The notes under the pieces are model-generated. The model made no database searches. It was given only the letters and a program-made list of their open reading frames with translations, and was not told where the DNA came from. A stretch of 41,644 bases of DNA, from IMG/VR virus record IMGVR_UViG_2617271072_000007; one strand, given 5' to 3'. This DNA is from a virus. Taxonomy: Duplodnaviria > Heunggongvirae > Uroviricota > Caudoviricetes. The translations under genes and the position numbers were made by a program. Positions 3,952-28,348 of the stretch are shown here, one piece after another. How positions within the stretch are numbered: the first letter of the stretch is position 1; each line of letters begins with the position of its first letter.

Positions 3952-5147
3952 GACTCCACCGTTATAACGATATTTTCCGGGGTACAGGACGCAGATTCGT
4001 TGTATCTGATATCAATGTTTGATGACGACAAAGCCCCCGGGGATTTCCCAATCGTCAGTTCCTGAATATCGTAATAGCGTGCATTCCCGCCACTCACCAC
4101 GCCAAGATTCGCCGGTGAGTAAATGCGACTTAAAAGGACCGAATCACCAATCATCAGACTATTGATATAGTCGGAAATAGCCTGCTGGATCTGCTGCCCT
4201 ATCTGTGAGGTATAACCCGTAAAAACTTTTAATTTAATCCGGGCATAAACAGGCACATCACTGGAACGCGAGAATTTGATTACATGGGGATTGCCGTATT
4301 TATCCGGAACCGTAACGGATGTTGTACCGTGAGTGGCTGTCCCCTGGCCTTTATTCCCTCTGATAGCCTGAGCAATATCCGTCACATCACCGCCATCTAC
4401 AATTACAGCAACAGAGTGTGGCGGTAACCCGTTACCGTCCTCCGAACCAGTATCGTTTTCATAGAGTTTGTGGCGGGTTACACCGGTAACATTAGAAACA
4501 GCACCATCCAGTGCTTCAAATGGGGTTATTGATGGCAACGCAACACTTTGCGACTGGCGGATACGTAACTCCGCATCAGTTTCTGCCGGAGTGCCCACAG
4601 TGGCTGCAGCAGGATTGGTTACCGAAACCCAGCCACGGGTTGGCGTATTAATTTCAGTGATAGTTCCAGCCAGCGCCGCCACTGCACCACTGACGGAACA
4701 TGTTGCGGTCACCATCACTGTACCATCCACGCCTACCACCACTGAAGCAGGCAAACGCCATATCACATTATTACTGTCTTTCACGCTGCCATTAATGATG
4801 GTTGTTCCGGCAGTTCCTGTAAGAAGCAAATCAACCGTAGAGTTCGTCGCGCCTTTACGTGAAATACCATTTATTTTCACGTTACTGGTCAGTGCAGCCC
4901 CATAGCCGGTTGCCGGTGAAAAACAGTTGTAGACAGTTATCGCCGTATTATTGGCATCATGAATCGCCAGCGCCATCAGAGCCACCATCTGGCCGTCTTT
5001 GCTGTCCGGTTCGAGGTAGGCATCACTACCATAAATCTGCTGAAAATAGCTAATCAGGGTGCTGAGTATCGTCTGATAATCAGGCGCACTGATCCCCTCC
5101 GCGGTTACCTTTGCAGATAAACCGAGAGAATCAAGGTTCAGAGCCAT
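3948..5147 (-). CDS. baseplate J-like protein
   Basis: 399 aa; conserved position between W-like and gpI-like genes. Confidence 0.8.
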   Translation of the reverse strand: MALNLDSLGLSAKVTAEGISAPDYQTILSTLISYFQQIYGSDAYLEPDSKDGQMVALMALAIHDANNTAITVYNCFSPATGYGAALTSNVKINGISRKGATNSTVDLLLTGTAGTTIINGSVKDSNNVIWRLPASVVVGVDGTVMVTATCSVSGAVAALAGTITEINTPTRGWVSVTNPAAATVGTPAETDAELRIRQSQSVALPSITPFEALDGAVSNVTGVTRHKLYENDTGSEDGNGLPPHSVAVIVDGGDVTDIAQAIRGNKGQGTATHGTTSVTVPDKYGNPHVIKFSRSSDVPVYARIKLKVFTGYTSQIGQQIQQAISDYINSLMIGDSVLLSRIYSPANLGVVSGGNARYYDIQELTIGKSPGALSSSNIDIRYNESASCTPENIVITVES

Positions 5148-5501
5148 TACGCCTCCGATGTAACAGTCGTTATTCCATAAAGAGTGTCGATTTCAGCGGA
5201 AAACATGACACGTCGGGTCGTGGTATCCACCGTCGTATTGAAAGAGAGGATTGATTTAACGCCCTGCGTTTCCAGAATGCGCTTACGGATCGCCAGGTTG
5301 TAGGTTTCCGGCTTCTGCCTGCCCAGCACGGACTGGATCCATGGAGTCCCTTCGGTGGTGTCGAGAAACCATTGCCCATACCACAATTCGAATCGCGTTT
5401 TTTACCGCCTGCGCCACGGCCTCCGGTGAGTTAATCAGCCAGGTGTCATCACCGCTGCCAAAGGTGTAATCACCATCGGCGTCTTCACGTCTGTATCGCA
5501 T
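5147..5501 (-). CDS. baseplate wedge protein (gp25/W-like); frame broken by a 1-nt indel
   Basis: ORFs 5283..5501 and 5147..5386 join into one protein if the A6 run (plus T6 at about 5398-5403) is A5. Confidence 0.6.
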
Positions 5502-6253
5502 CAGTTTACCCCATCGGTATTGCTTCCACCGCGCTGAACACCGCCATGAGTGTGCGTATCATCGATTGGCTTGCCGTTAGCCTTAACGCTCCCCAAGAAC
5601 TCAACAGCACCAATGATTTTTGAAGCCACACCAGAAACAACAGACCCCACCATGCCCCCCATCCAGGTTAACAGGCCATGAATGGTTACTTTCTCAGAAA
5701 AATCAGCCAGAGGGGCAACCACATCAAGACCACCCGGGGCGACAATTTTAATTTTCCGGGTATCAGGATTAAGCTCAAAATAGGTGCTGCCGTCGTCACT
5801 ACGCAACTGTGTGGCACTGGTATTAATACCGCTAATCTTCCTCGCCTGCGACTGGGGACCGACAATACAAAACGCATCCGATAAATCATGCATTCTGTCA
5901 TCGACCGGCTCCTGTATCCCACCGCTCTGCCACCAGAAATCAATACAACGATCGGCAAAAACGACAAGACACTCATCCCCGGCTTTAACCGGAAAAGTCA
6001 ACGTACAGCCTCCGCCGCGCGGAAATACCACTGGCACATCCACCAGCAACGGGTAATTTTTGGTAATGCGGTTACCGTCGTTATCCTTTTCAACCGAACG
6101 GATAGCTGGCTGCACAACCGCCGTCACCGCGTCGGGATCGAATGACTGAACAATGCCAGGCAAGGCGACACGGATCTGGTTCTTTGTTGTTTCCCGTTCA
6201 GATTTGAATGTTTCGGCAAGGTCGCCGCTGCGGGTCTGGTCAGATACTGCCAT
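5501..6253 (-). CDS. baseplate spike / assembly protein V-like
   Basis: 250 aa, follows the hub gene in conserved order. Confidence 0.7.
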   Translation of the reverse strand: MAVSDQTRSGDLAETFKSERETTKNQIRVALPGIVQSFDPDAVTAVVQPAIRSVEKDNDGNRITKNYPLLVDVPVVFPRGGGCTLTFPVKAGDECLVVFADRCIDFWWQSGGIQEPVDDRMHDLSDAFCIVGPQSQARKISGINTSATQLRSDDGSTYFELNPDTRKIKIVAPGGLDVVAPLADFSEKVTIHGLLTWMGGMVGSVVSGVASKIIGAVEFLGSVKANGKPIDDTHTHGGVQRGGSNTDGVN

Positions 6254-6270
6254 TTAGTAGGCTCCAGAAA

Positions 6271-6298
6271 GCAAAAAACCCGCCGGGTGGCGGGTTCA
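6271..6298 (-). terminator. rho-independent terminator
   Basis: Minus-strand stem AACCCGCC / GGCGGGTT with 4-nt loop followed by U6. Confidence 0.7.
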
Positions 6299-6312
6299 TT
6301 ATTGAAGTTTCA

Positions 6313-6552
6313 TTACTGCTTGTTTGCTTCTAACGCTTCAGCTATTCGGCGAAGATACTCATTGTTTTTAAATGAAACCATGATGCACTCAAAGAATATT
6401 CGGCAAAATACAGCACATAACAAAAGCACTAAAGCGCCAGCAGCCTTCCCATTAACAAACGTTATAATGGCGGCAACAACCAGAAGTAACATTGTGATGC
6501 CATACAGAACGTTGATGATTTTTGGAGTTATTAATTTATCAAATCCGAACAT
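6313..6552 (-). CDS. small inner-membrane protein (moron)
   Basis: 79 aa, two hydrophobic helices, RBS AGGAA, followed by its own terminator. Confidence 0.6.
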   Translation of the reverse strand: MFGFDKLITPKIINVLYGITMLLLVVAAIITFVNGKAAGALVLLLCAVFCRIFFECIMVSFKNNEYLRRIAEALEANKQ

Positions 6553-6605
6553 GCGACAAATTCCTTATCGTGAAAGTAGAAGTATCACATTATAATTACG
6601 AGTGA

Positions 6606-6947
6606 TTAATCAACAATCTTTTTGCATGGAAAGGAACCGATGATTTTCGGCGCATCCATGCTGTTCTGCAGCAGTTGGACATTCAGGAATCGCGTTTCGG
6701 TACCAGGGCGACGAATGTATTCAAAGCCGTAGTTGTTACCGTCTTTGGCAGGCATAAGCCCCATGTCTACTTTCAAACCATTGGTACCCAGTTCGGTGAT
6801 TTTTTGAGAGGTAACTTTTTCACCGTTGATTGTCGATAACTCGCCCTGGTTTGCAACCATAGTGTAGCCACCGCATTTAACCGTGAAGCCATCCGCCCAC
6901 GCACTGCACGCAGAAAAGACAGCTAACAGAAAAATAATACCCCTCAT
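6606..6947 (-). CDS. secreted protein or lipoprotein (moron)
   Basis: 113 aa; signal peptide MRGIIFLLAVFSAC with possible lipobox Cys; RBS AGGGGA. Confidence 0.6.
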   Translation of the reverse strand: MRGIIFLLAVFSACSAWADGFTVKCGGYTMVANQGELSTINGEKVTSQKITELGTNGLKVDMGLMPAKDGNNYGFEYIRRPGTETRFLNVQLLQNSMDAPKIIGSFPCKKIVD

Positions 6948-6950
6948 TGC

Positions 6951-8012
6951 TCATCCCCTTTGCAAAGCCGATTGCGTATACAGATCCGCCGCGCCACGCG
7001 CTTCGCACATCATATCCATGTACCACGCCTGGCCCCTTGTATCGCCACTGTACATAATCCCGCGCACAATATAAACGCCATCCGTTGCGATGCTGGCAGG
7101 CTGCGATGTGGTGCCGCTGAGCGTGATATTTCCGTCCGTGTTCTGGTCGGTGATCTGACCACCAGCCATCGCAATATCGTTGTTCGACAACGCGGTACGA
7201 TAGACGGAAGCCTGATCCAGCTGAATGAGCCCGTTAACCCGGATGTTCGGATTAATAAGAGCGCGGACGTTTACGCCGTTGCCGATGGTCTGCTGCGGCA
7301 TGCCAATAAGCCCGGTAGCACTGTTGAGCACAATCGCTTCGTGAACATATTCATTAGTCGCCACCATCTGGCGCTGACCGTCCACGAATTGCCATGTTGC
7401 GCCACATTGCTCGGCTACGTTATCCATTAGATGCCGCGTCATGCCAAAGAGCACCCGCCCCCGGGGGAATACAGTAGCAGGCATTTCAGGCGTCAGGCCT
7501 TCGGTCACACCTTTGGCTTCGAAGTCTTTCATCAGCGCACGGTTCACATCAGCGACCGTGTAACCGGCAGCCAGCGTCTGTGAGGTTATACTGGTGGCAA
7601 AAGCCAGATCAGTATCTGCTGCCTGAATCAGGACGTAGGAATCAACCGGACTGTCTTTTCCTGTGACCGAGTAGCGAATTTCACCGCTGAAAATCAGTCC
7701 GTAGTTGCGACCATCACTCTGGCCCACGTTCGCCGCGTCAACTTCCCGCACTGTCCCGACGTCGCTTGCCGACACCTCCGGCGCGATACCGTCGTAACCC
7801 GCAATCAGACGCACTTTCGAAAACTCCTGCCCGGTAATTCGGTTCACAGTATCTGCCGAAAGGTTATAAATTTTGATAGTCCCTACCCGGGACGCGCTGC
7901 TGATGTTGAACCAGTCGATCGTAAAGGTGACTTTGAAATCACTTAGCTCAATTCCCTGACCGTTCCCGTCCACAAGCTGCAGCTCGAAATGTCTCATCCA
8001 GTTCTGTGACAT
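6951..8012 (-). CDS. baseplate hub protein (P2 gpD / Mu gp44-like)
   Basis: 353 aa, position between tape measure module and spike. Confidence 0.65.
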   Translation of the reverse strand: MSQNWMRHFELQLVDGNGQGIELSDFKVTFTIDWFNISSASRVGTIKIYNLSADTVNRITGQEFSKVRLIAGYDGIAPEVSASDVGTVREVDAANVGQSDGRNYGLIFSGEIRYSVTGKDSPVDSYVLIQAADTDLAFATSITSQTLAAGYTVADVNRALMKDFEAKGVTEGLTPEMPATVFPRGRVLFGMTRHLMDNVAEQCGATWQFVDGQRQMVATNEYVHEAIVLNSATGLIGMPQQTIGNGVNVRALINPNIRVNGLIQLDQASVYRTALSNNDIAMAGGQITDQNTDGNITLSGTTSQPASIATDGVYIVRGIMYSGDTRGQAWYMDMMCEARGAADLYTQSALQRG

Positions 8013-8014
8013 GC

Positions 8015-8317
8015 TTACTCCGTTGATACCAGTAAATGACTGCGCCCGCCCAGGTCAGTTTTCGTGGGATAATCCTGTGTGTTGTCATCACAGACCACCA
8101 ACAGCTTAAAACCAAGTCCCATACAGGCGTACTGCGCCAGCAGATCAGCGCCAGTGACGAGAGGAATACCGGAGATTACCGGCTCCCCTCTGTCATTCAG
8201 CAGGTCCATAATCCAGTAAAGATCGCGCCATATGATGCTAATCCGCCAGGTGACACCACCCAGGACGATGCTGAACTGCTGGTTGTCCGCTGTCAGCGGA
8301 ATTTCCTGAATTGTCAT
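8015..8317 (-). CDS. tail protein, function unassigned
   Basis: 100 aa, translationally coupled inside the tail operon. Confidence 0.45.
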   Translation of the reverse strand: MTIQEIPLTADNQQFSIVLGGVTWRISIIWRDLYWIMDLLNDRGEPVISGIPLVTGADLLAQYACMGLGFKLLVVCDDNTQDYPTKTDLGGRSHLLVSTE

Positions 8318-8904
8318 TAGCCGCCCCCCAGTAATGACGCCACGTTACCCGTGATGCTTTTCAGCAGTGAAGTATCTGGAGGTTTTGTGGTTTTGTTGCC
8401 GCTGTTCTGTACCGCCGAGGTGCTGGCCCCTTCCTTCATATTGGTTTTATCCGCGACGGTAATCTGCTGTGTCCGGGAGATAAGGACCTCCCTCAGGGTA
8501 AGAACGGCGGACAGGACGTTTTCGGTTGTCTTGTCCGTCGTCACTTCCAGCGCCCGGATCAACATGTTGCTGTACAGTCGTTTACCGGTTACCACATCGA
8601 AGGGGATACGGCTTTCCTGCAGATCCAGTAGCTCCTGATACGTCTGCTGAGGACTCAGGCCGAGCAGGCTGGTAGCTGTCAGATTACTGGCAAAATCCAG
8701 CAATGCGCCGCCACCGGCGAAACCAACCTCCATCACCACTTCTGACGGTTTTTTATAGGCATGATCAGCGACAGCAGCCCCGACCTCTACCGGATGCTCT
8801 GTTATTTCAAGCATATCTGTATGCTTCTCTGAAATAACAACACTGGGAACAATCATTCCTATTTTTCTGCTCTGCTGATGAAAAAGTGTAGAGAGAATAT
8901 CCAC
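8317..8904 (-). CDS. tail protein, function unassigned
   Basis: 195 aa, immediately after the tape measure gene. Confidence 0.45.
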   Translation of the reverse strand: MDILSTLFHQQSRKIGMIVPSVVISEKHTDMLEITEHPVEVGAAVADHAYKKPSEVVMEVGFAGGGALLDFASNLTATSLLGLSPQQTYQELLDLQESRIPFDVVTGKRLYSNMLIRALEVTTDKTTENVLSAVLTLREVLISRTQQITVADKTNMKEGASTSAVQNSGNKTTKPPDTSLLKSITGNVASLLGGG

Positions 8905-10891
8905 TAACCCACCCTCACCTGATTACTTCGCATGACCTGAGCATTTGCAGACTGTTGCCGACGTGCAACCTCATTACCGACAGCGTGCGGATCTCCGCCA
9001 CCGTAAATGTGGTAAGTATTTTGCTGATTAACCTCTGTCATTTTGCCACTAATTCCCGCCACGGCAGCCTTATTAATCAGCTCTCGGGAATAGATATTTC
9101 TTCCATTTTCATGCTGGATAATGCTGCTCATCAATGCTGACATGGTTTGCGGCTCGCTCATATTCAGGGCAGCCCGGGGATCCACTCCCAGTCGTTGCGA
9201 TACAGCCCTGATATACGCAGTTGTGTTGTTATTATCAGACGCAGGTGCCCAGGTAGAGATAATTTTCTCCACACTGTTTATTCCCCGTCCGGCGTACAGC
9301 ATTAACTGACGAGCAAGAGCCCGTAATCCATCAAAAGCAGTTTCAAATCTGGCAAATCGCCCGCCCGGGCGTTCAAGAGAAGCCCCTGCCTGACCAGCAA
9401 AATTAAGGTTTCCCGGATTGTTATTCCGTTCTCCTCGTTTCGTAGCCTGTGCATATTGTTCCGGCTCATCATCACCAAACCAGCCGCGTACCGTCCGGCC
9501 CACGCTGCGGGGATCGAATCCCCAGTGCTCTTTAATCCAGTCGGCAGTACTGTTAGCGCTGTCTGTAACTATCGGCATCGCTGACGGATTTTCGCTGCCC
9601 TGATTAAGTATCTGTTTGCCGATGCTGACGGCATCAACCCAGCGGCCATCTTTGATAGCGTTGAGCAGGTCGGCGATCATGTTCAGCATTTTGCTGAATT
9701 CGCCCATCTGGTCGATGAAGTTGCTGAAATCCCACTTCAGGGACCATGATTTGGGGTCAATATTGAGCAGTTTCGCCAGCGCTTTCACCAGGTCGTTAAC
9801 GGTCGTTTTAAGGTCACGAACCATCTTCAGCGCGGCATCAACCTCCGGTTTCCACTTGCCCCAGTCAATCAGGCTGTCGCCGCCTTCCTTCCAGGTCTGA
9901 TAGTCCTCCCACAGGAGGGCAATCCCCGCCGCCAGCGCGGTAATGAGGCCAATCGGCGACATCCAGAACGTACTGTTCAGAATGCGCAGCGCAATCGTCA
10001 GTGCGCCAAACAGCGAGATCAACTCCCGCGTTTGCTTATCCAGCGATTGCCACCAGGTGATGAGGCTTGATGTTCCTTCAATCAGTCTGAAGAACAGCCG
10101 CCCGATAATATCCCCGAGCGCCAGAATGCCTTTTATGGCTTTCGTCAGGGTCTGCTCGATACGCGGGAAGTTGTCCAGGATATGGCGGCGCAGGGTGTCC
10201 AGCGAACCCGCAAGCCCACCCGCAAGATTAGAGCCGATTTTGTCACGGGCCATGCCTGCCATCGCGCTAAACTCACGCAGGGAGGTCATAAATTTGTTGG
10301 AGCTTCTGGCCGCCTCTTCAGCATTGAAGCCGATAGCTTTCGCCATTGCGCTGTACTGCCCGGAGAAACCACCCACACCCCGGCGCATCGCCATAAGGGT
10401 ATTTTCGTCAATGCCCAGCATCTGCGCATACTGGTTAGCCCGGTAATACGGCATGCCGCTGAGCTTCTGGCCTACACCTGTAAAAATAGCGGCCATGTCA
10501 CGCATGTTACCGCTGGCATCCCGTGTCTGTACCCCCAGGCGATTCAGAAATCCCTCTGCACCGGGATTGTTACGAATAAACCGGGAGAGGCTTTCCAGAG
10601 AAGATCGCGCAGCGTCCACGCTGCCGCCAACCCGCGAAACCGCATATCCAATAGACTGAATTCCCTGGACTGTCGCGCCAGTGCGCTGTGACGCCCAGTA
10701 AAGATTATCCAGGCCGGAGGCAATCTTAGCCGTAAAGGCCACCACGGACAGTGCAGCTCCTTCAACGGCCAGTCCCATTTTGATGACATTTGCAGTTGTA
10801 CCGGCGAGGACAGAACCGAATTTTTTGCTCCAGCATCATCCACACTGAAGCCAAGCGAGACGAGGAAATCTTTAATAGTTTCAGCGTTCAT
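8904..10891 (-). CDS. tail tape measure protein; frame broken by a 1-nt indel
   Basis: Start MNAETIKDF at 10891 with RBS GGAGAGAGG; frame switches at the A6 run (plus T6 about 10821-10826) into the 624-aa ORF 8904..10778; an A7 restores one frame. Confidence 0.8.
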
Positions 10892-11522
10892 TATCCTCTC
10901 TCCATTTCTCAATGCGCCGCTGGTTATCCGCTTTTACCGCCAGATGGTCATTCAAGAGAGCAATATCGTACAAATCGACAGAGCCATCTTTAAGTGCTGT
11001 ATAAGGAATTAACCCGGCGTCAACCGGATTGAGAAGGTAGGACAGCCCGTCCGGCAGGCTGTTAAACGTCAGCCCTGTTGCAGGCTCTGCGTCGTGCTGG
11101 TAAGGGATGTAGGCAAAAAAATTTCCCAGCGAATTGGCGACCACCCGCGCCACCAGCTGCAGCATGACCAGCAAGTCAATATCATCAAACATCAGTTCGC
11201 CCTGGGTAAATACCGGCACCCATCCGTCCATATGACGCCGCGATACCACCGCAAGACAGGGATGAATAATCGCATCGGTGTCATCTTCGGTCAGGGAAGA
11301 CAATTCCTCAGCGATACGCGGGAGCATGGTTTCAAACACCGGTTTTAACTGCTCGAATTTCACGGTGTCGATTTTGCCGTCAGCAGGCAAACGGGAGCGA
11401 ATGCTCCCGAAATCTGACATCATTCCTGCCAGCACCGGCAGAAGTTTGCGGGTCACTTTCAGCTGGTCAAAAACGCTGAGTTTTGCCGCGCGATATTTCA
11501 CGCCTTTGATTTCGAATTCCAT
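10881..11522 (-). CDS. tail assembly protein (possible chaperone)
   Basis: 213 aa between tube and tape measure genes. Confidence 0.45.
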   Translation of the reverse strand: MEFEIKGVKYRAAKLSVFDQLKVTRKLLPVLAGMMSDFGSIRSRLPADGKIDTVKFEQLKPVFETMLPRIAEELSSLTEDDTDAIIHPCLAVVSRRHMDGWVPVFTQGELMFDDIDLLVMLQLVARVVANSLGNFFAYIPYQHDAEPATGLTFNSLPDGLSYLLNPVDAGLIPYTALKDGSVDLYDIALLNDHLAVKADNQRRIEKWREDNER

Positions 11523-11525
11523 GTA

Positions 11526-11966
11526 TTAAAACTCCCCGAGAACCTGGTCAATCTTGCCGCAGTCAAACACCCACGGCATCGTATTACCGGTTTTAGCGTT
11601 GGCATTATCCGGTTGTTTCTGGAACGCAACACTACGTGCCGTGATGATGTCGCCGCTGACCTTGTTTCGGATCACAATAACGTTATTCCCCCATGTGGCA
11701 GAAGACTGGCTCTGTGCGTTATACGCCAGCGACAATTTTTTATTTGTCGGTGATGTCTTCAGAAGGTTAACGGTAATCGTCCCGCTTTTATCTGCATGGA
11801 GACTGTGCATCACTTCGCCATCAGCACCGATGGTCATGGTGTTTTTAGGACCGCCCATCGCAACCACAATCCCCTCTTCAGAACTTGCAGAACCGTACCC
11901 GAGGTCAATCGAACCGGTCGGCCCGGTCAGCGTCGCAGTGACATCCATAAAAGAATAGGTAGACAT
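11526..11966 (-). CDS. tail tube protein
   Basis: 146 aa directly after the sheath gene. Confidence 0.7.
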   Translation of the reverse strand: MSTYSFMDVTATLTGPTGSIDLGYGSASSEEGIVVAMGGPKNTMTIGADGEVMHSLHADKSGTITVNLLKTSPTNKKLSLAYNAQSQSSATWGNNVIVIRNKVSGDIITARSVAFQKQPDNANAKTGNTMPWVFDCGKIDQVLGEF

Positions 11967-11976
11967 TCACTTCCCC

Positions 11977-13122
11977 TTAGCGAACAACGTTAATCTGTAC
12001 GTCAGCGTAATGAACCGCGCCCGCAAGTTTTATTGCAGCCTGAATCACCGGAGCCTTACGGGCTTCACGTTCTGATTGTGCCTGTTCATTCAGCGGCTGG
12101 GCGTATACGTAATAACCTTTGGGCAGTGTGTCACCTGATGACAGCTGACCAAGGTCGCCCCCGTTCCATACGCCCGGAGCAATCAGTCCATTCTGAACGG
12201 CCTGATCCAGTGATTTTTCAACATTTGATAACAGTCGGGTAATACCGGCTTCAGTCTGGGGAACTTTCGTGGTGCTGGTATAAAGCAGGTTATAGAGGTT
12301 GGTCTGCACATAATTCTGTAACCAGTCCAGGCCGTGGCGTTCATCAAAGAAATCGCCGTTAGCCATCACTCCCTGCTGGAGGATAGCTGTATCATTCTGG
12401 TAGTACACGAACACATTGCAGTTTTTTGCATCAAGTGCCGATGCCTGGCTGACTGTCAGTGTTTCATACCCGACACCCGGCTCCTGCTTAAACTTGAGCG
12501 TAATCGCGGTATTACTGCCATTGAAATTAACCGTGAATGCCCGGCCAAATGCAGATAACGCAGCGTATTTATTACCCGATGAATACTGAATAAAACTGCG
12601 TGAATATCCGGCGGTTTTCAGTTTTGATGCCAAATCATCGCTGGATGCAGTCTGCAGGCATTTCTCATCGCTTGTCGTAATCGCCAGAATACGGCTTACA
12701 GAAGAGGATTCGATCGCCGCAGCCACTTTCAGCCAGTCTGCATCCGGAATATCTTCATCGTCTGCAATCCCCAGCCCATACCATGAAGTATAATCAAGCA
12801 TGGCATTCACAGCCTGCTCCAGCGTCTCAGGCGTGGCCTGTTCGCTGTCTCCCTTCGTTTTCACCCAACGACCAACAAAAACCTCCTGAGGTTTCGGTGA
12901 TTGTGAGAAAAACACCTGCGCAGCTTTATATTCTGGTGATTCCACGCCAAAATCTTTTCCAATATCTTCCGCGGCAGAATAACGGCGAATGCGCTCACTT
13001 ACCGGAATGATTGTGGACGGGCCGAGAATGAGTAATGCACCAAAATTTCGCCCTGATGCTGCACGCGGCGACATGATCACATCAACATTAACAACGTTTG
13101 ATACAGGCAAGCCCTGTGCCAT
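11977..13122 (-). CDS. contractile tail sheath protein
   Basis: 381 aa, conserved sheath-tube order. Confidence 0.8.
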
Positions 13123-13125
13123 AGC

Positions 13126-13692
13126 TTAATCTCCGAAAAAGATGACTGGTGCTTCCACCAGCGATTTAATACCGTACTCGCGCACAACCTTCCGGCGCAG
13201 ACGCACCGTCATATCGTAGCGGCGGACCCATTGCTGATTAATAAGTTCAGGGAAGGGAGTCAGACCTGTGTAATCGCCAAGAGACAGCCCCAGCGCATTC
13301 AGTGCTGCATTGTTCTGCGGTACAGATATACCGTCACGAAACCGGGACGCATACACCATCCCCGCCGGACCATAAAACGAAGCCATACACTCAATCGTTT
13401 CATGCCGCCAGAGCTGAGAGCCATCATCGGTCTGTCTGGTGAATGCCGGACTGTCATCACCTGACCATCCGATAACCCCAAACGCACACCAGTTCGTTTC
13501 AGCCGGTAGCAGTGGCGGCTGCTCTTTCTGCCAGCGCGGGCGAACCATCCCGGCAGACAGACCGGAAACGTTACGCATCCACTGGCTTAACAGCCTGTCG
13601 AGCGCTTCGTCATAATCCGGATCGCCACTGGTTGGTATTAACCATCCGCGCTCTGTACTGGTGTTATTGCTCAACCGGAGTTCCCCCATCAA
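13126..13692 (-). CDS. neck / tail completion protein (putative)
   Basis: 188 aa, between head and sheath genes. Confidence 0.45.
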   Translation of the reverse strand: MMGELRLSNNTSTERGWLIPTSGDPDYDEALDRLLSQWMRNVSGLSAGMVRPRWQKEQPPLLPAETNWCAFGVIGWSGDDSPAFTRQTDDGSQLWRHETIECMASFYGPAGMVYASRFRDGISVPQNNAALNALGLSLGDYTGLTPFPELINQQWVRRYDMTVRLRRKVVREYGIKSLVEAPVIFFGD

Positions 13693-14053
13693 ACGGCATC
13701 AACTCACAATGCGCCTGAACGAATCCGGCCCCATAAGCTGTATACGGGTCGACGAAGGTCACACGATAATCACGGTCCTGATACGTCACGATATCGGCAT
13801 CAAGGCCAGTCTGTCCCTGCGTCAGTCGCTCAGTCGTCACAATCAGAATTGCACCGCTGATTACCTGCCCTGCCTGCATACGGCGGTTTTCCAGAGAGCG
13901 ATCAACAGTTACGACTCCGGCAAACTGCTTTTTAACTTCACTGTCGCTGCCGATCCCGTCCTCATCCACCGTTTGCACTCGGCGTGTTACCCACAAATTG
14001 AAGTCGCAAAAATCGGGGTCAAAAAGCACATCTGTTACATCAAGAGTCGGCAT
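13664..14053 (-). CDS. head-tail adaptor (putative)
   Basis: 129 aa, position. Confidence 0.45.
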   Translation of the reverse strand: MPTLDVTDVLFDPDFCDFNLWVTRRVQTVDEDGIGSDSEVKKQFAGVVTVDRSLENRRMQAGQVISGAILIVTTERLTQGQTGLDADIVTYQDRDYRVTFVDPYTAYGAGFVQAHCELMPFDGGTPVEQ

Positions 14054-16689: not shown

Positions 16690-17913
16690 TTTACCCTTTA
16701 CGGTTTGCCCAGAATTCAGCGTTTTGTTTGTTCAGGGAAGCGATACTGGTCATGCCCATGTTTAGGCGCTGTGCATCGCCGGTGGTGGCGCGGGTGTTTC
16801 GCCCTTTGGCAATCTCAGACACGGCATTAAACGCCATGTCGACCGATTGTTTCGGCAATTTGCGGATATCCGCATCACCGACGATCTGGCGAACCAGCGT
16901 TTTTATCTGCGGAAGCCAGAACCTCGCGTTTTGAACTCGGTCGGTTTCATCTTACGGCTCAGATCGATACCCGGAACGATAACTTCGGCACGCCAGGCTG
17001 AGTCACCAGTAATCGTGGTTTCCTCTTCATCGTCCTCGCCGTCACCGGTCGGATTATCGTCAGGCTTATTATCGTTATCGCCCGTGGCATTTCCTTCCAG
17101 CTTAGCCAGCAGGGCTTTCAGTAATGTTTTGAGGTCATCATCACTGTCGCCGGTTGGACCTCCACCCATCTCTGGTGCTTTGTCCGGTAGTGGTTGCTGC
17201 GGGGACAGGTTGATGTTGAGATTAACGCCCTGCGGCAAATCCCCCTCATCTCCTGTAACCGATGCGGGAGCCGACTCCACCAGTTCGTTCATGGTGTCGG
17301 CATCTCCTGTCTTGATGGCTGCACGCATGCGGTTCCACCAGTTTTTTCTTTTGATTTGCCATTGTGTCTCTGTCTCCAATTGCACAACGATTTCCGGCTC
17401 TGCCTTTGGGGACAAGAGCCACATGGTTTCCGGTAATATCGACCTGCCCGGCTTTACCTGGCTCGGTCTGCTCGTACTCCGCGTCATAGCCGCACGACAC
17501 TTCACGCAGGCCATCTTCGATAAGCTGAATGGCGTTTTCGTCTTTGACGATAAGGTCAGCCAGCATCAAATCAGACTGCTCACCCGTCCCGCGCCGGACA
17601 TTCTGAAGATGCCCGACAGCAAGCTCTTTCCAGTTCTCGGGATTTACCAGCCGCACATTCCCGTTTTCATCTTCAGGATGCAGGATCGTGATGCTCATCC
17701 CTTCGAATGAGGCAAGCGTGGCCGGATGGAATACCTGCTCAGGAGAACGTGTGACGACTATTTCACCGAACTTATCGGGTTTCAGTTTTGGCAGGTCATC
17801 AGCACCATAGAGCTGCTTACCTGTTCGTCCTATCGGCACGTCTTTGCACAGCAACGAGCCGTCAGCCAGCTGGTAGCGGGTTTCTCCCAGCCGGGTATTG
17901 AAAAATATTTCAT
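16690..17913 (-). CDS. capsid scaffold / maturation protein (DUF2213-like); frame broken by three 1-nt indels
   Basis: [13 protein letters not shown] core, acidic Asp/Glu-rich middle; frame changes at homopolymers near 17901-17905, 17342-17347 and 16905-16935. Confidence 0.6.
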
Positions 17914-17927
17914 GGGTTACCTGCGAT

Positions 17928-18701: not shown

Positions 18702-20019
18702 TCTCTATGTCCTCGTCGGTAATGGATGCCCCGATGCCGGTTACGTCAGAATTTTCGCGCAAATCAGTCATAGCGGCTTTCAGTGTCATCAGACCATCAC
18801 CCAGCGCTGTACTGATTGCGTTGGTGGTATTTAACGCCACCGTTGAACGATCGACATCAGACATTTGCCAGAGCGGGTTAAACTCAAACGTGAAATCATC
18901 CGGGAGCGGCTTGCCAAGTTCCGAACGATGCATGATGTCCAGTATCCGCCGCACCGGAAGACGTAAACGCCTCTCCTGCAACGAGCTTACCCGGTCGTAA
19001 TAGTTGGCAAGGTCTGCATCGCCGGTAGAAAATCCCTTCGGGGACTGTCCGAACAACCGCACCAGTGGGATACCAACAGCGCCACTAATCTGTTCTGCAA
19101 ACTGTGAAAGGATGTCATCCAGACCACTGAAGCTGTACTGATGGGTTTCAAACTTATCCCGCGAGTCCATGAGAGTCATGCCTTCATTGCTCTGGAACTG
19201 TCGAATCAGGTCAATATTCTTCAGCAACGCTTCATACGCAGGACCACCAAGTGCGATAAGCTCGCGTAGCTTCTCCACGCTGTAGGTACGCAAATGCGCT
19301 TTGTAGACCAGCTGCGCCGCGCCGACAGTAGCGCTGTCGAACGCGGTAAGACGATCCCAGATACGCTCTACAACCGACATTCCCCATTCGTTCTCGGTCA
19401 TCTTCTGCTGAAATGGCAGCGTGACGCCATCAAAGCGAATCAGGCGACTGTGATGAATGCGCCAGGCAGGAATTCCCGTTGCTGTGGTCACCACATCGTA
19501 AAACTCAGGTTTACCCAGGTCCGGCCCCATATCTTTAATGCGGCGGGTCAGTACCGGGTCGATCATCCAGCGGTCGAGCGGGAGAATCCCCTTAAACTTG
19601 CCCTTACCGATGGTTTCGGGTCGCAGCGGGGTCATTGGTGCCTGCCCCTCAATCATGATGAAACCCACCGCGCCGCCGTAGAGGCGCGACCATTTCAGCA
19701 CGTCATTCAGCGCATCCCAGATTTGCAACTCATCCAGTTGTGATTCGAGAATGCCACGATCTTTTGCATCAATTTCCGAAGTGATGCGAATGCCTTTGCG
19801 GGTCATATCATCCGGGATAGCATCGACTGCTTCGCCGATGATCCAGGATGAACGATAGGACCATTCCACCAGCATGCGGTTACGACTGGTGAAATTAGCC
19901 CGGTAGGTGGATGCTGAGTGCTGGTTAGGTGTCTGCATCCCTACGCGGGCAATAAAATTCTCATAACCATCAGCTGTGGCCTGCGCAGTTCGCCGCAGGG
20001 CTTGTTTGTTTCGTGCCAT
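18553..20019 (-). CDS. portal protein (DUF935 / Mu gp29-like)
   Basis: 488 aa, acidic C-terminus, directly downstream of terminase. Confidence 0.85.
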   Translation of the reverse strand: MARNKQALRRTAQATADGYENFIARVGMQTPNQHSASTYRANFTSRNRMLVEWSYRSSWIIGEAVDAIPDDMTRKGIRITSEIDAKDRGILESQLDELQIWDALNDVLKWSRLYGGAVGFIMIEGQAPMTPLRPETIGKGKFKGILPLDRWMIDPVLTRRIKDMGPDLGKPEFYDVVTTATGIPAWRIHHSRLIRFDGVTLPFQQKMTENEWGMSVVERIWDRLTAFDSATVGAAQLVYKAHLRTYSVEKLRELIALGGPAYEALLKNIDLIRQFQSNEGMTLMDSRDKFETHQYSFSGLDDILSQFAEQISGAVGIPLVRLFGQSPKGFSTGDADLANYYDRVSSLQERRLRLPVRRILDIMHRSELGKPLPDDFTFEFNPLWQMSDVDRSTVALNTTNAISTALGDGLMTLKAAMTDLRENSDVTGIGASITDEDIENAEDEAPPGIGEPDDEPQEPSGGNPVSNQSTQDSAGGRGHRKWSLRWFK

Positions 20020-21643
20020 CAGGCCTGTCTCCCTAGCAGCTCCCAGATGTTCAGGGCTGAATTCATTGGGGCATAGTTGATCATCACCGAGTCGGCAAAG
20101 TTTGGCGATCGGGTTCCATCAGGCTGTTTATCAATAACGATTTTTCCCACACCATTAATGGAATAGGTCGGCTGCGAAAGCTCGATGATGAGTTTATCTT
20201 TGAGTGCCATGCTACTGCTGATTGAGATGATTTCGTCCGGGTTGTAAGCCATACCTTCAACCACGGCGCGCCAGGTATTCTGAAAAAAGTTTACGTAACC
20301 GCCACCAGCTCTGGGCTTTGGCGTTAGCGAAGAAGTCCTTGTTCAGACGTGCGGCTTGCCCGTTGTCCCCGCGAACAGCTTCATCATCCGGATCAAATAC
20401 CGCGCCACTACCTCGAAACGGTGTGGCAAGTATTGACGGTCGACGCGCAGCGTTACGCAGTTCGTTGATAGCGCGTGCATCGCCGCGAACGCCAGCGCCC
20501 AGCCCGTCCTCGTCAAAGCGAAACTCTTCGAGGTTGTCCTGTTCGCAAAAGCCGAAAACCTTCTCGACGGACTGATAAATGTCGCTGCCCACACCGGACC
20601 ATTCCCGCACATTTTCCAGGAGGAAGCCATGACGGGTGGAAAAGGCATTTTTGTCCCTGCCTTCATCGGCGACATCCATCGCGCCAAGTCGTTTGCCTGT
20701 TGGCTGGATCCCCAGTTTGATATGCGCATCAACGGCAGCCTGTACCCATTCGGATGGAATCAGAACGCCTTCCGCTGATGCGCTGTAGTTCAGATCAAGT
20801 TCCTGTGCTACCACCACCGGATTATCGATTTTCTCGCATTCCCTGCGATACCACTCTTCATCCTTGCGAGGATCATCCCGCCAGTGGAATGTGAATACCG
20901 GTATCTTCCCGCCATGACGCTTCTGAGCGAACGGGTTAGCCATGCCGTTAACTGAACTCAGGTCGATACGGCAACGCGTCGTTTTGTGACAACGCCGCAT
21001 CAATCAGCAGAGGACGCTGAAGGAATGCAGCCTCATCAACCAGATAAAGCGTGGTACGGTCACCACGACCAATATTATCGCCAGCCTCGCCTTTGATAAC
21101 GGCACCAGTTTCAGGAAACTCAACACGCATATATGGCGCGTGCTTCTTCTCGCTCCACGAACCGCGAAACTCTACAGGTAGCGTTTCCACGAACTTGCGC
21201 GCCTTCCAGAACAATGCTTTCGGGTCACCAGTGCTGTCGACGTATTCCTCTTTACGGGAGCCGAAACCGATAACCATTTCTTTGTTGAAGAGACAAAGCG
21301 AGCAGGCCAGTCCGATCGCGGTCCAACTGAGCCCCATTTCACGGGATTTTTCGGTAATACCATTCTCCCGATTGCTCCAGCGTTCCATAATCCAGTGGAT
21401 CCACTCCTCCTGCTTAGGGAAGAGTAAAAACGGAATGGTCACCGGCAGGCCATAATCAATATTACGCGGGTCCGTTGTCATGCCCCAGTCGATGATGAAC
21501 TGAGCCGGATTAGTTCGGTAAAACTGTTTTAGTGCAGGCAATATTTCAGGATTCTGGCGAATGCGCTGTAGGCGTTCCATCCGCCATTCAAAAACCATCT
21601 GGTAATCAGGATGTTTAAAATCGAAGGGGAATGGTAACGGCAT
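20019..21643 (-). CDS. terminase large subunit; frame broken by two 1-nt indels
   Basis: ATPase Walker [10 protein letters not shown] plus C-terminal nuclease domain; three ORFs join at plus T4 (about 20982-20985) and plus A6 (about 20283-20288). Confidence 0.85.
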
Positions 21644-21645
21644 AC

Positions 21646-23264: not shown

Positions 23265-23267
23265 GAA

Positions 23268-24396: not shown

Positions 24397-24427
24397 CTGG
24401 TTCCCTTACGTGATTGATTGCTGGATA

Positions 24428-24851
24428 TTATGCCGCCGAGCAGCTCCTACGCAAAGTCCTGATAGCCTGAGGCTTTGACTGAACCGACTGATCCATTTCG
24501 AGCACCACATCCAGCATGGCTAAGCAACCGTCAATAAATCCCTCTGCCGCCTGAAGCCTCTTCAGAACGTGGGTGTGAGATACGCCGAGCTTCTCACCCA
24601 TCGCCCGCACGGGCATGGCCTGGACGTAATGCCACTCAAGGAGCGTGCACAGATACGGATCTTTTTTTCTTCAGGCAGCTCATAGCGGAGTTGATGATAA
24701 GACCGTCATTGTCACTGCATTTCAGCCTTCCAGACTGCGTCGCGGGTAGCAGATTCTTAAACCCGGCTGCAACAGGAGGAAAGTAGACGCTACCACCTTC
24801 ACTCGCTGCCCAGCCCCCCCAGCGCTCTAAAACCTGTTGAATATTACGCAT
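24428..24851 (-). CDS. late-gene antiterminator Q (phage 82 / QuuD-like); frame broken by a 1-nt indel
   Basis: MRNIQQVLERWGGWAA ... KRLQAAEGFIDGCLAMLDVVLEMD; two ORFs join if the A7 run (plus T7 about 24662-24668) is A6. Confidence 0.75.
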
Positions 24852-24980
24852 AGCTCTGACCTCTACGTTTTGCTACGAAAAAAAATTTTCTGAGAACTAC
24901 GTCTGTTTATCCGTGGGTGGGATAACGCAGTTCCGATTCGCTTATTACACGCTGTTATGTGCAAAAAATTCCTTGTTCGG

Positions 24981-25154
24981 CCTGTACCAACCTGTACCCA
25001 CCTGTACCAGCTCTTTTCAAACCTTTTCCCCAAGCGACTTATATATATATATGGGGTTCTTAGTAATTAGGTTGGTACAGATGGTACAGTTGGTACTGGC
25101 CTTTAAATTCAATTAGTTAAAATGTACCAACCTCTATTTTGAGGTTGGTACAGG
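24981..25154. repeat. iteron-type replication origin candidate
   Basis: Three tandem 10-bp repeats CCTGTACC(A/C)(A/C/G), a (TA)n tract near 25040-25052, then at least four more copies of the TGTACCAAC core in both orientations. Confidence 0.6.
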
Positions 25155-27327
25155 TTGGGACACCGCCTCAAAAATTCGAGTCATTTTCCCCCCAATTCGC
25201 CTTTGGGCACGCTTATACCCGCAATTTTGCAAAACATTACTAATTCGCATTTCTTCGCGTTTTCCGATGCGGTCAGGATTTAGCCCAATCGCATCACGCA
25301 AAACATCACTTGCGCGTAAAAATTCGCAATTTCGCGGAAGTTCATTAGTCATCAGGTCTGGCGTGTCGAGCCATTTCTCTACCGTTTCAAGCCAAGCATC
25401 CTTGATGGTGTACTGTTCATGGACACTCGCTGCCAGTTGTTCAGCCTCACGGAACTGGATACCCCCCAGACGCTGAAACACCTCACGAGCCTCAGCCCAA
25501 AGTAAAAGGAGATCTCTTTTTATCGCTTTCACGTCGACTTTCGACACTTCCACGGGGAGCCAGCGACGGTTACCAGTCTTGTCCGCAAGGAATTCGTCCT
25601 CATTGGTGGTACCAACGAACACCAGGCGACGAGGAAACTGGGTGGCGAACTCCCGGTATTTCGGGATCCAGTTTTCGTGAGTACGCGTCACAAACGCTTT
25701 GATTGACTCCAGCTCTTTGGTATTAAGTCCGCGCAGTTCACCAATCTCTGCCACCAGCCGACCACGCATTTTTTCGAGCGAGATCATCGTCTTTTTCGGC
25801 AAAAGAGATTTCAGTAAAAAACGCAGGATCAGGGCTCAGTGCCTCCACTCCGGAAGACTTACCGCAGCCCTGCGGACCAACGAGGATCGGCACCATATCC
25901 GCTTTGATGCCTGGCTCCAGTACTCGCCCCGCCAACGCGGTCCACATGAACATAGACACCGCACGGGTATAAGGCGTGTCGGCGGTACCGAAGTGCGTAT
26001 GGTAGAAACATTCGATGCGCGGCACGCCATCCCACTCCAGTCCGTTCAGCCAGGTGATCGCTGAATCGAATGGTTGTTCATCGGCTGCAAGTAACACCAC
26101 ATCGCGAATAAGTTCACGACCAACAGGTTTAAATCCCCGCTTTTCCATCGTGATGCGCAGGCGCGCATAATCCGCATCGGTGAATGCCCGCCATTGTCCG
26201 GATCCTGCAGGGGCAAACATGATTTCGTCGCGGAACTGGTCAAAGCGAATATCGATGTCCACAAAATCAGGGCGTACTACTGCTTTGGCTGCGTTGCTGA
26301 TGGTTGCCTCGATACGCCCCCATTTATCACGCTCGAAAGCAGGCAGCGGTAAAGGTTCCGCCACTTCGATGCTGGTCAGATCTTCGAAATCGTCGTTGCG
26401 GATCCCGATGGCATTCAGGAAATCTCCGTCATCACGATGCGCGCAACTGGCATGCAGGCATTTAAAATGCCCCTGCTCAAAGCCTGCGGTTCCCGCAGGA
26501 AAATAAACTGTGCTTGTTGGATCGCCTCCGCTACTGTGGCCGTCTTCAAACGGACAGCGGATATATCGTTCACCGTTTGCGCCATCCAGCAGCGTCCAGC
26601 CATTGGCATCAAGATATTCAGCTGTATCATCCGTCGCGCCGGGCGTGAATGCTGAACGGTCGCGCATCTTCGTGTTGCCCGCTTCGGTGGTTACCGACAC
26701 AGGGAGTTGTTCAGCCAGGCGCTGCCACAGCGTTTCAAGCTGCTCACCTGTAATAGCCGGAGGTTCATCCGGCAAACCACCGTCCCATTCAATACGCGCG
26801 CCGCTGCTGTGCGTACCACAGGCAACGAACTGCTGCCCGTTCGCCAGCAACTCGATAATGCCCATATCCCCCGCCAGGCGATGGATACGCTTACGGAAAT
26901 CACCATCAACGGCCAGCAGATACAGACACTTATTACTGTTTGCTCGCCAGCGTCGCGGCGGCGACTCACCCAGAAGTTGCACAAGTGTTTTGCGAATATC
27001 TGCCTGAATGTCTTCATCTTCGCTATCGCAGTCCAGCGCCAGCCAGCCATGGCCTGTACGCACGCAGATGCCATAATCCGGTTCATTCGACCAGCGGGCA
27101 AAATCATGCTCAGTAACAACATGCCCGGTCCATTGAGCAATACCGGTGACCTGGCGGTCCCGGTTATAGCGACTCGGCGTCTTACCCAACGCTTTCAATT
27201 TACTATCAGGGGATATGGTCGCACTGGGGTTACATACAACTGGGAGAAGATGAGCAGTCCGCCCCAATACCAGGTCGAAATGAAACCACTCATCAGGCGT
27301 AGCGCCCCATGGTTTGCTATCGGACAT
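25134..27327 (-). CDS. replication primase-helicase (prim-pol N-terminus, VirE/D5-type NTPase C-terminus); frame broken by a 1-nt indel
   Basis: Walker A GPQGCGKSS, Walker B-like VFVGTTNEDE; ORFs 25738..27327 and 25134..25802 join at plus T5 about 25792-25796. Confidence 0.85.
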
Positions 27328-27330
27328 GGG

Positions 27331-27531
27331 TTACACCTTTTGTCTAGCTGTCACTTCCTGAAAAAGTTTTTCTATCGCACGTACTGTAGAAAAGCGAGGG
27401 TCAGAATGAACCCCGGTAAGAAGCCGACTAATAGAAGACTGCTTCACGCCTGCAATTTCGGCAATTTGGTTTTGGGTATACCCTGAATCAATCAAGCTTT
27501 TGACCATCTCTTGTGGTGTTAGTCCGGACAT
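27331..27531 (-). CDS. cro: Cro-like HTH regulator
   Basis: 66 aa HTH (QNQIAEIAGVKQSSISRL), divergent from the repressor, RBS GGAGA. Confidence 0.75.
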   Translation of the reverse strand: MSGLTPQEMVKSLIDSGYTQNQIAEIAGVKQSSISRLLTGVHSDPRFSTVRAIEKLFQEVTARQKV

Positions 27532-27672
27532 ATTTAAGTCTCCACTTTCGTCTATAGCGCAAATTTATACGAAAACGGATTACTCAGCAATACAGCAATT
27601 CTATGTCATCCTAGATTAAAATATCCGATAACGCATAATCACCGTCCCTGTATACAACATGGATGAATCCAA
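27532..27672. promoter_or_regulatory. OR-type operator region with divergent pR/pRM promoters (not resolved)
   Basis: Intergenic between cro and cI; contains GATAACGCATAATCACCG and TATAGCGCAAATTTATACG, related to motifs at the pL promoter. Confidence 0.5.
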
Positions 27673-28348
27673 ATGATTGATACTACCGATATCCTTTCTC
27701 AAAACATCAAGTACCTGATGGACAAAGCCAAGATAAGCTCGATAACTGAGCTGGCACGTCGGTTACAGCTGAACCAACCAACGCTACACAGGCTGGTATC
27801 AGGAGAGGTGAAAGATCCGAAATACGCAACGTTAAAGCAGATCGCCAACTACTTCCACGTGTCACCAATAGACTTGGCAGAAAGGAGCCTTCAAGAAATG
27901 GAGAAAGAGGACGCGACAGGTATAAAAAACGTATATTTCTCTTAGGTTTAATAAAGTACCTGTTTTGGGAAACACTCAGCTAGGCGTTGGAGGACTTTGG
28001 AGCGACACCCAATATTCAGTAGGTAGCAGTGATGGTTTCATATACTGGCCGACAAAGGATGAAGATGCATACGCCCTGAAATGTGTTGGTGATTCAATGA
28101 TGCCTAGAATCAAAGAGGGGGAGTTCGTAATCGTCGAACCCAACCACGACTACACTCCTGGTGATGAAGTACTTGTGGTTACCCGGGACGGTGAGGTCAT
28201 GGTGAAAACCTTCTTGTTCGAACGCGATGGCCTGTTCCATCTAATGTCTGTAAATGAAGATCATCCACCAGTCAGAGTACCACGCGAAAACATTGAAAAA
28301 ATCCATTACGTGGCGGGGATCGCCAAATCCGCGCTACGTATGTACTAA
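27673..28348 (+). CDS. cI: CI-type repressor (HTH plus S24 LexA-like peptidase); frame broken by a 1-nt indel
   Basis: HTH in 27673..27945, GDSMMP peptidase motif in 27965..28348; frames join at the A6 run about 27924-27929. Confidence 0.85.

Follow-up and report, generated by a model that had tools for sequence, protein, structure and literature searches.

Indel events across the prophage

The stretch of DNA analysed here (the window, 41,644 nt) holds an E. coli prophage of ~41 kb positioned between yfhH and yfhL. The genes considered encode tail fibre assembly (within an invertible segment), baseplate, tape measure, tail chaperone, head maturation, terminase, antitermination, replication and repressor proteins, together with cargo such as a low-GC, TfpB-like hypothetical gene. 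Taken at face value, the window would pass for a cryptic prophage in advanced decay, with damage to 12 genes.

The window was compared base by base with the prophage of E. coli MINF_2E (NZ_LR890651.1), and with ~40 further relatives. The two prophages are 99.93% identical over the whole window and share the same gene order, with all genes of the MINF_2E copy annotated as intact. They are collinear except for the invertible tail-fibre segment, whose orientation is opposite in the two. The boundary sites of this inversion were not recovered in a repeat search (seed 9) and are visible only as overlaps between BLAST HSPs of the window and MINF_2E. Apart from the orientation of the segment, the window differs from MINF_2E by 23 run lengths and 2 substitutions, which are the only substitutions private to the window; the remaining three differences are private to MINF_2E. 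Neither large deletions nor IS elements were found in the window in this comparison.

The 23 private indel events (Table 1) comprise 18 insertions and 5 deletions, and 19 of them are located in genes and four are intergenic. An existing run is changed in 22 events, with position 32685 as the single exception, and 21 of the 23 fall in A/T runs. The changes are of one or two bases only, a two-base change being found at one site (24878-24885).

Table 1. Indel events private to the window, with the state of the window given against that of the relatives
Gene or region	Position	Strand	Window vs relatives	Shift	Effect
Tail fibre assembly gene (invertible segment)	1471..1476	+	A6 vs A5	+1	gene broken
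DUF2612 baseplate wedge protein	3334..3336	-	C3 vs C2	+1	shortened, 207 aa vs 226 aa
W-like baseplate wedge / sheath initiator	5398..5403	-	T6 vs 5 bases	+1	117-aa gene broken into ORFs 5283-5501 and 5147-5386
Tape measure / transglycosylase	10821..10826	-	T6 vs 7 bases (T7)	-1	N-terminus lost, 624 aa vs 662 aa
Tail chaperone	11115..11121	-	A7 on + strand, T7 in gene, vs 6	+1	213-aa TAC-DUF6889 fusion, ORF 10881-11522
DUF2213 / head maturation protease	16900..16904	-	T5 vs T4	+1	
DUF2213 gene	16929..16932	-	T4 vs T3	+1	
DUF2213 gene	17342..17347	-	T6 vs 5 bases (T5)	+1	
DUF2213 gene, near start	17901..17905	-	A5 vs A6	-1	
Terminase large subunit	20283..20288	-	A6 vs A5	+1	
Terminase large subunit	20982..20985	-	T4 vs T3	+1	
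Antiterminator Q	24662..24668	-	T7 vs T6	+1	
Intergenic, upstream of Q	24878..24885	.	A8 vs 6 bases	+2	
Intergenic	24919..24921	.	G3 vs 4 bases	-1	
VapE primase-helicase	25769..25774	-	T6 vs T5	+1	730-aa protein broken into ORFs 25738-27327 and 25134-25802
cI-like repressor (HTH + peptidase S24)	27924..27929	+	A6 vs A5	+1	224-aa protein broken into ORFs 27673-27945 and 27965-28348
Intergenic	28485..28491	.	T7 vs T6	+1	
DUF2815 gene	32421..32426	+	A6 vs A5	+1	begins inside stop codon, protein unaltered
Nmad5 gene	32654..32658	+	A5 vs A6	-1	first of compensating pair
Nmad5 gene	32685	+	extra T (CCTCTG vs CCCTG), outside any run	+1	frame regained 31 nt on, 10 residues garbled, ORF stays open
TfpB-like hypothetical gene (low GC)	37931..37935	-	A5 vs A6	-1	
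TfpB-like gene	37992..37997	-	A6 vs A5	+1	
TfpB-like gene	38060..38062	-	A3 vs A2	+1	

The initial annotation had listed at least ten homopolymer indels that break phage genes between 5147 and 28348. The indels are real and the set is larger, with 14 events inside that span and nine outside it (the first two and the last seven rows of Table 1). Length changes against MINF_2E are present at its sites in the W-like gene (5398-5403), the tape measure (10821-10826), the scaffold (17342-17347 and 17901-17905), the terminase (20283-20288 and 20982-20985), Q (24662-24668) and cI (27924-27929). The gene called scaffold is indeed hit, at four sites rather than three, since the change placed near 16905-16935 resolves into two events, and DUF2213 is better called the head maturation protease. 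The primase-helicase is likewise broken, but the T5 run at 25792-25796 to which the break had been assigned is unchanged; the true event lies 23 nt off, within the same zone of ORF overlap. The events within the span that had been missed are those in the tail chaperone and the two intergenic ones at 24878-24885 and 24919-24921. The estimated density of one indel per ~2 kb agrees with the measured density of about one per 1.8 kb over the whole window, and both insertions and deletions occur as described. Confinement to homopolymers applies to all events except the one at 32685.

The probability that an A/T run is affected climbs steeply with its true length. One of 2844 runs of two bases, two of 890 runs of three and one of 282 runs of four (0.35%) are changed, and the counts are 8/107 at five bases (7.5%), 7/49 at six (14%) and 1/2 at seven. 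Runs of at least five bases hold 16 of the 23 events although only 2.6% of the sequence lies in them, far more than chance would give (binomial P = 7e-21). All 16 are among the 158 A/T runs of at least five bases, compared with 0 of 43 G/C runs of this size.

Frame repair and the host flank

The run lengths of relatives had been proposed as a check, and relatives carry the frame-restoring length at every one of the 23 sites. Per site, 1-18 relatives were available for matching, among them the Sanger-era genomes of H10407 and O103:H2 12009 and one isolated phage; only one relative could be matched at 1471..1476. None of the good-quality relatives matched has any of the 23 states of the window. 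Two apparent matches to window states were rejected, one being a misparsed homologue of 89% identity and the other a 1.3-kb contig with run deletions of its own. An error in MINF_2E itself was ruled out, as 8-18 independent relatives, including the Sanger-era genomes and the phage, agree with MINF_2E. The isolated phages vB_EcoM-689R2, 611R5, 606R2 and 683R1 have the same gene order as the window, with ~97% identity over 85% of positions 5000-28500, and all of their genes are intact.

With the 23 runs reset, 49 of 54 proteins instead of 38 match MINF_2E exactly. Eleven broken or garbled genes then encode proteins 100% identical to those of MINF_2E and TerL regains its full length, in line with the earlier observation that the flanking frames carry continuous, conserved sequence and with the earlier reading of the gene content as probably intact. 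An exact-protein look-up found no record of the 529-aa VapE fragment, the 519-aa extended helicase ORF or the garbled Nmad5, nor of the 50-aa, 45-aa and 194-aa fragments of the TfpB-like gene. A 193-aa fragment has exact matches only in other assemblies, and the intact helicase, the integrase and a 63-aa ORF are widespread in the same look-up.

Positions 1-13951 of the window are byte-identical to the draft contig CBWN010000134.1 (GCA_000529855.1), which is thus the source of the window. A literature search on the platform or provenance of CBWN01 / GCA_000529855 returned nothing, its sole match being an unrelated JACBWN accession. The contig extends into the host chromosome, of which ~7 kb on the left side was sampled; acpS, pdxJ, recO, era, rnc and lepB of the right flank lie outside this sample. 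In the left flank, purL has T4 instead of T3 and is split into 376 and 900 aa instead of 1,295, and yfhH has T7 instead of T6 and encodes 266 aa instead of 282. All other strains fetched have purL of 1,295 aa and yfhH of 282 aa. In addition, 0.7-0.8 kb to the left of the window, a T11 run is found in place of T7, together with a garbled 25-nt stretch that contains literal Ns (CACATGNTCANAATNNCAATTTG vs CACATATCACAATTG). The sampled flank holds 4-5 indel events and only 1 substitution. Breakage of purL and yfhH alone is no proof of error, because both genes are dispensable in rich medium. Since the flank has the same defects as the prophage, the lesions are not specific to the prophage.

Origin of the run-length changes

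The comparisons indicate that the frameshifts are almost certainly consensus errors of the one draft assembly rather than mutations. The initial annotation had likewise favoured sequencing error over decay, which is borne out by the errors in purL and yfhH, the N calls, the ratio of 23 indels to 2 substitutions and the privacy of the window states. A base caller or assembler would have miscounted mononucleotide runs, mostly by over-calling A/T runs of 5-7 bases by one, and with genes packed as densely as in a phage genome, every miscount would break or garble one of them. The underlying DNA would then be an intact temperate myovirus-type prophage, essentially identical to the MINF_2E copy.

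The error profile fits flow-based chemistry, and a platform such as 454 or Ion Torrent with low local coverage is the most likely source. Three features favour this chemistry, namely the excess of insertions over deletions, the rarity of substitutions and the presence of N calls. Read errors of 454 GS-FLX Titanium show the same ordering, with insertions (0.54%) above deletions (0.36%) and both far above mismatches and N calls, at 0.09% each (PMC3116506). Miscalls of 454 and Ion Torrent likewise cluster in runs and become more frequent as runs grow longer. Those published values are for reads, whereas the errors of the window are in a consensus, implying low local coverage or weak polishing. 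Among runs of at least five bases only A/T runs are hit, a bias that flow chemistry would not obviously produce and that counts against the fit. The alternative of an uncorrected nanopore or PacBio assembly shares the pervasive single-base run errors that break genes genome-wide, as in the assembly L027 (GCA_029457935.1). In a nanopore consensus, most run errors are usually deletions and N is rare. In contrast, 18 of the 23 events in the window are insertions and the assembly contains Ns. Of the two error sources suggested earlier, long-read and flow-based sequencing, the latter is the more likely.

It is unlikely that a minority of the run changes is real, for which the best candidates are in the TfpB-like gene at 37321-38119, whose product has 265 aa in relatives. 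A neighbouring T6 run of this gene differs in three other assemblies. The variation of this run is restricted to assemblies of doubtful quality, and L027, one of the three, is noisy, with lepB broken into 177 and 167 aa. If the changes were real, the TfpB-like gene would be a slippage-prone, possibly phase-variable cargo gene of the prophage among the artefacts.

The broader proposal that some sites are functional, as programmed ribosomal frameshifts or as contingency runs that make phage genes phase-variable (on or off), is very improbable. In addition to the differences in the TfpB-like gene, it could draw on the event at 11115-11121, which falls exactly on the conserved slippery site GGA AAT TTT TTG of the tail chaperone. 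In the relatives, the chaperone gene immediately precedes the tape measure gene, and its T6 allele has the slippery sequence of the lambda G/GT type (A AAT TTT or T TTT TTG), with a -1 frame that continues for a further 80 codons through DUF6889. The +1 change in the window mimics this programmed -1 frameshift and yields the fusion. However, the programmed frameshift would work on the T6 of all relatives, whereas the T7 of the window would fix the shift in the sequence, with loss of the short product; the extra T is an error and not the programmed mechanism. The other runs are merely 2-7 bases long and invariant among up to 18 relatives. Run length would be variable among close strains at a contingency locus, but no variation among the relatives was found at any of the 23 sites. 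Of the three assemblies with a different run in the TfpB-like gene, at least one is demonstrably noisy.

An equally improbable reading is that of a genuinely decaying cryptic prophage, in which real slippage indels piled up neutrally after function was lost. The window resembles cryptic or defective E. coli prophages in that breaks affect several of its structural and regulatory genes, and the coding sites are unspared, as expected without selection. Real single frameshifts are also known in this prophage family, such as the minor head protein pseudogene of the Sanger-era O103:H2 12009 genome. However, real decay leaves inherited lesions, substitutions, deletions and IS elements that are limited to the prophage, none of which describes the window. 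No lesion is common by descent to any relative (0/23), the private substitutions are only two, and purL and yfhH outside the prophage are equally hit, with N calls as well. Moreover, 23 independent indels would have had no time to arise, because apart from them the window has 99.9% identity to an intact copy.

The least probable explanation is a natural mutator deficient in mismatch repair, with real replication slippage genome-wide. It would account for the hits in host genes, and mismatch-repair-defective E. coli do gain +/-1 indels preferentially in mononucleotide runs at a length-dependent rate (PMC8510543), but mutation-accumulation lines with this defect have ~6-7 substitutions per small indel (6.02 vs 0.85 per CDS; 4,847 vs 790; PMC8510543) and indel hot spots in G:C runs as well (PMC8510543), whereas here the ratio is 2:23 and G/C runs of at least five bases are untouched. 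All known biological spectra run opposite to the 23:2 ratio of indels to substitutions. At one indel per 1.8 kb, a genome would carry ~2,500 frameshifts and could not be viable, and neither the N calls nor the garbled stretch is a mutation.

Consequences for gene content

These findings are of practical and not of biological value. With GCA_000529855.1 as their basis, gene calls, pseudogene counts, prophage-completeness scores and protein clusters would be wrong for about one gene per 2-3 kb, and the 207-aa wedge protein and the 213-aa chaperone fusion are already on record in public protein collections. Two of the errors are traps of a particular kind. The compensating -1/+1 pair in the Nmad5 gene garbles residues without breaking the ORF, and the extra T in the slippery sequence of the chaperone gene yields a fusion protein that looks plausible. 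Judged from its sequence, the prophage is almost certainly that of an intact temperate phage and is probably inducible.

Run-length differences between the window and its relatives

The ORF list of the window shows overlapping minus-strand fragments, paired or chained, where single phage genes are expected. Megablast searches with positions 5000-28500 located the prophage, covered to at least 80%, in 117 complete E. coli genomes; four isolated phages, vB_EcoM-689R2 and its relatives, matched at ~97% identity. E. coli strain MINF_2E (NZ_LR890651.1) gives a 99.9% match over the full length, yet is 10 bases shorter. All genes of the MINF_2E prophage are annotated as intact. They begin with the Pin invertase and the tail fibres, end with the integrase, which adjoins yfhL, and between these comprise baseplate, tape measure, sheath/tube, head, terminase, lysis, Q, VapE primase-helicase and cro/cI genes and a DNA polymerase A replication module.

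Features of the window
Feature	Position	Strand	Remark
Fragmented ORF group	5147-5386/5283-5501	-	ORF list
Fragmented ORF group	10544-10912/10881-11522	-	ORF list
Fragmented ORF group	16691-18701	-	ORF list
Fragmented ORF group	20019-21643	-	ORF list
Fragmented ORF group	25134-27327	-	ORF list
Chaperone-DUF6889 ORF	10881-11522	-	slippery site at 11112-11124
Window-private substitution	6903		G to A
Window-private substitution	20099		G to A, CAAGG to CAAAG, at run boundary
Invertase gene	501-1091	-	Pin/Gin-type, resolvase family
Inverted segment	1117-2938		1.8 kb; boundaries 1117-1137 and 2918-2938
Nmad5 gene	32475-33116	+	-1/+1 pair at 32654-32685
TfpB-like cargo gene	37321-38119	-	low GC (about 37%)
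HTH_17 ORF	39575-39775	+	66 aa, excisionase-like

Base-by-base comparison of the entire window with MINF_2E, as three collinear pieces and one inverted piece, showed 23 indel events (length changes of one base, or two at one site) and five clean substitutions; a few extra mismatches fall within the crossover repeats of the invertible segment, which are imperfect. The initial annotation had counted at least ten indels, about one per 2 kb, of both signs and confined to homopolymers. The comparison extends this to one event per 1.8 kb, with 18 insertions and 5 deletions, and all events but one (22/23) alter the length of an existing run. The sites at 5398, 10821, 17342, 17901, 20283, 20982, 24662 and 27924 are exact. 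Near 16905-16935, where one site had been claimed, two were found (16900-04 and 16929-32), and the primase-helicase indel exists but is located at 25769-74 (T6 vs. T5), the T5 run at 25792-96 being unchanged. Overlooked within the annotated span were events at 11115-21 (tail chaperone), 24878-85 and 24919-21 (both intergenic), and outside it those at 1471-76, 3334-36, 28485-91, 32421-26, 32654-58, 32685, 37931-35, 37992-97 and 38060-62. Family searches agreed with the gene labels except for the 'scaffold', which is DUF2213, related by PHROGs to head maturation proteases.

Polarity was assessed using eight relatives with annotation, among them one isolated phage and the Sanger-era genomes of ETEC H10407 and O103:H2 12009, and about thirty further loci obtained through protein look-ups. 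The relatives carry the MINF_2E run length, which restores the frame, at all 23 sites, with the window as the outlier; mostly 7-18 relatives were matched per site (one at 1471, three at 3334), and they keep this length even at runs interrupted by a substitution. The only two apparent sharers of the window state were dismissed as a misparsed homologue of 89% identity and a 1.3-kb contig with adjacent run deletions of its own. Three of the five clean substitutions are private to MINF_2E and two to the window, so that 23 indel events stand against two substitutions as window-private changes.

The events are in A/T in 21 cases and in C and in G once each. The altered fraction of A/T runs by true length is 1/2844 (2), 2/890 (3), 1/282 (4), 8/107 (5), 7/49 (6) and 1/2 (7). 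Runs of at least 5 hold 16/23 events in 2.6% of the bases (binomial P = 7e-21); window-wide, 16/158 such A/T runs are altered vs. 0/43 G/C runs, and 17/440 vs. 1/185 when runs of 4 are included (Fisher P = 0.03). The bias of the errors is thus A/T-specific.

Repair of the runs and the source assembly

The 23 runs were reset to the relatives' lengths, and six-frame translations were matched exactly against 54 MINF_2E proteins. Exact matches rose from 38/54 to 49/54. The eleven rescued genes encode the tail fibre assembly protein, the DUF2612 wedge protein, the W-like wedge/sheath initiator, the tape measure, the tail assembly chaperone, DUF2213, Q, VapE, cI, Nmad5 and a TfpB-like hypothetical protein. 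TerL regains its full length with one missense difference, and the other four non-matches are attributed to the window edge, the inversion and a MINF_2E-private substitution. The prophage should be treated as intact, in line with the initial proposal of a probably intact gene content.

The 207-aa truncated wedge protein is listed under NCBI GCA_000529855.1, on contig CBWN010000134.1 (127.8 kb), whose locus is byte-identical (reverse complement) to window 1-13951. Its gene calls mirror the breaks of the window: the chaperone is called as a fusion of 213 aa, the tape measure at 624 aa and the wedge as 72+60 aa. Comparison of 6.7 kb of host DNA left of the window with MINF_2E showed one substitution, an added A (A5 vs. 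A4), and further lesions in two host genes: yfhH has an added T (T7 vs. T6) and is called at 266 aa, and purL has an added T (T4 vs. T3) and is split into 376 + 900 aa, whereas all other strains fetched have 282 and 1,295 aa, respectively. In the interval between the prophage end and yfhH, 0.7-0.8 kb left of the window start (14638-14746 of the fetched locus), a T11 run replaces T7, and there is a garbled stretch with four literal N calls (CACATGNTCANAATNNCAATTTG vs. CACATATCACAATTG in MINF_2E); both are direct evidence of poor consensus quality. The event rate of the flank (~0.65 per kb) agrees with that of the prophage (0.55 per kb). Given these lesions in the host flank, the defect is a property of the assembly, not of the prophage.

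The same prophage in GCA_029457935.1 (JAPQMB010000013.1) has many split genes, including the integrase, DUF2800 and Nmad5, and there the essential lepB is split into 177+167 aa; this is evidently a second noisy assembly.

Alternative explanations and sequencing platform

The window-private indels, the exact repair, and the like lesions and N calls in the host flank bear out the initial reading of sequencing error rather than decay. Real decay of the prophage is very improbable: under decay, lesions should be inherited and restricted to the prophage, and substitutions, deletions or IS elements should be present, but none of this holds. What genuine decay looks like is shown by O103:H2 12009, in whose copy of the prophage just one gene, for a minor head protein, is annotated as a frameshifted pseudogene (14023-14758 of the fetched locus), a solitary lesion as against twenty.

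Programmed frameshifting or phase variation, just as improbable, fits one site at most, and the signal there is in the relatives' allele. The tail assembly chaperone of the relatives has an in-frame CTG GGA AAT TTT TTG with the DUF6889 ORF in the -1 frame, a slippery arrangement that fits a putative programmed frameshift of the lambda G/GT type; RefSeq annotates the DUF6889 ORF as a separate 54-aa CDS with a TTG start. The extra T of the window at this site yields by accident the predicted 213-aa fusion product.

A mismatch-repair mutator with run-length indels genome-wide is the least probable, since substitutions exceed small indels by ~6-7 to 1 in MMR-defective E. coli lines (6.02 vs. 0.85 per CDS; 4,847 vs. 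790; PMC8510543) but stand at 2 to 23 in the window, G:C runs are hot spots in such lines whereas those of at least 5 are unaltered here, and a frameshift per 1.8 kb genome-wide would be non-viable. Judged from these comparisons, the frameshift feature is not biological.

No record of how GCA_000529855.1 was made was found in the literature. Its accession series presumably dates from about 2013-14, predating nanopore assemblies. At the read level, 454 GS-FLX Titanium shows insertions of 0.54%, deletions of 0.36%, mismatches of 0.09% and N calls of 0.09% (PMC3116506), the same ordering as observed here, with insertions over deletions far over substitutions, plus N calls. The platform was most likely a flow-based chemistry at low local coverage.

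Variable segments and concealed errors

The inverted segment adjoins the invertase gene, lies in the opposite orientation to MINF_2E and has imperfect 21-nt inverted sites at its ends (AAACGTTGGTTTTGGAGAAGG / CCTTCTCCCAAACCAAGGTTT). It resembles a host-range switch of the tail fibre in its other orientation, with an altered C-terminus of tail fibre ORF 2422-3288. The HTH_17 ORF, which lies between the helicase and integrase genes, is uninterrupted in the window and in most of the relatives; it has a CAA to TAA nonsense change in MINF_2E (window position 39620) and is uncalled in a few further strains; unlike the artefactual indels, the nonsense change is a real polymorphism. The TfpB-like gene, whose product has no Pfam or PHROG family match, contains three errors in the window. 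Among three other assemblies, it is split into 60+193 aa in two, where the T6 at gene position 175 has become T7, and has two run deletions in the contig of the third. Either errors strike this gene repeatedly, as a hot spot, or the run length truly differs between strains.

In the Nmad5 gene, two events 31 nt apart change KKIESMVTKIPDS to KRLNPWSQKSSDS, garbling 10 residues and leaving the ORF unbroken. A compensating error of this type would escape frameshift or pseudogene checks. The value of the analysis lies in flagging the artefact together with two less obvious consequences, the Nmad5 compensating pair and the fabricated chaperone fusion; any gene-level inference from GCA_000529855.1 needs prior correction at the 23 runs.
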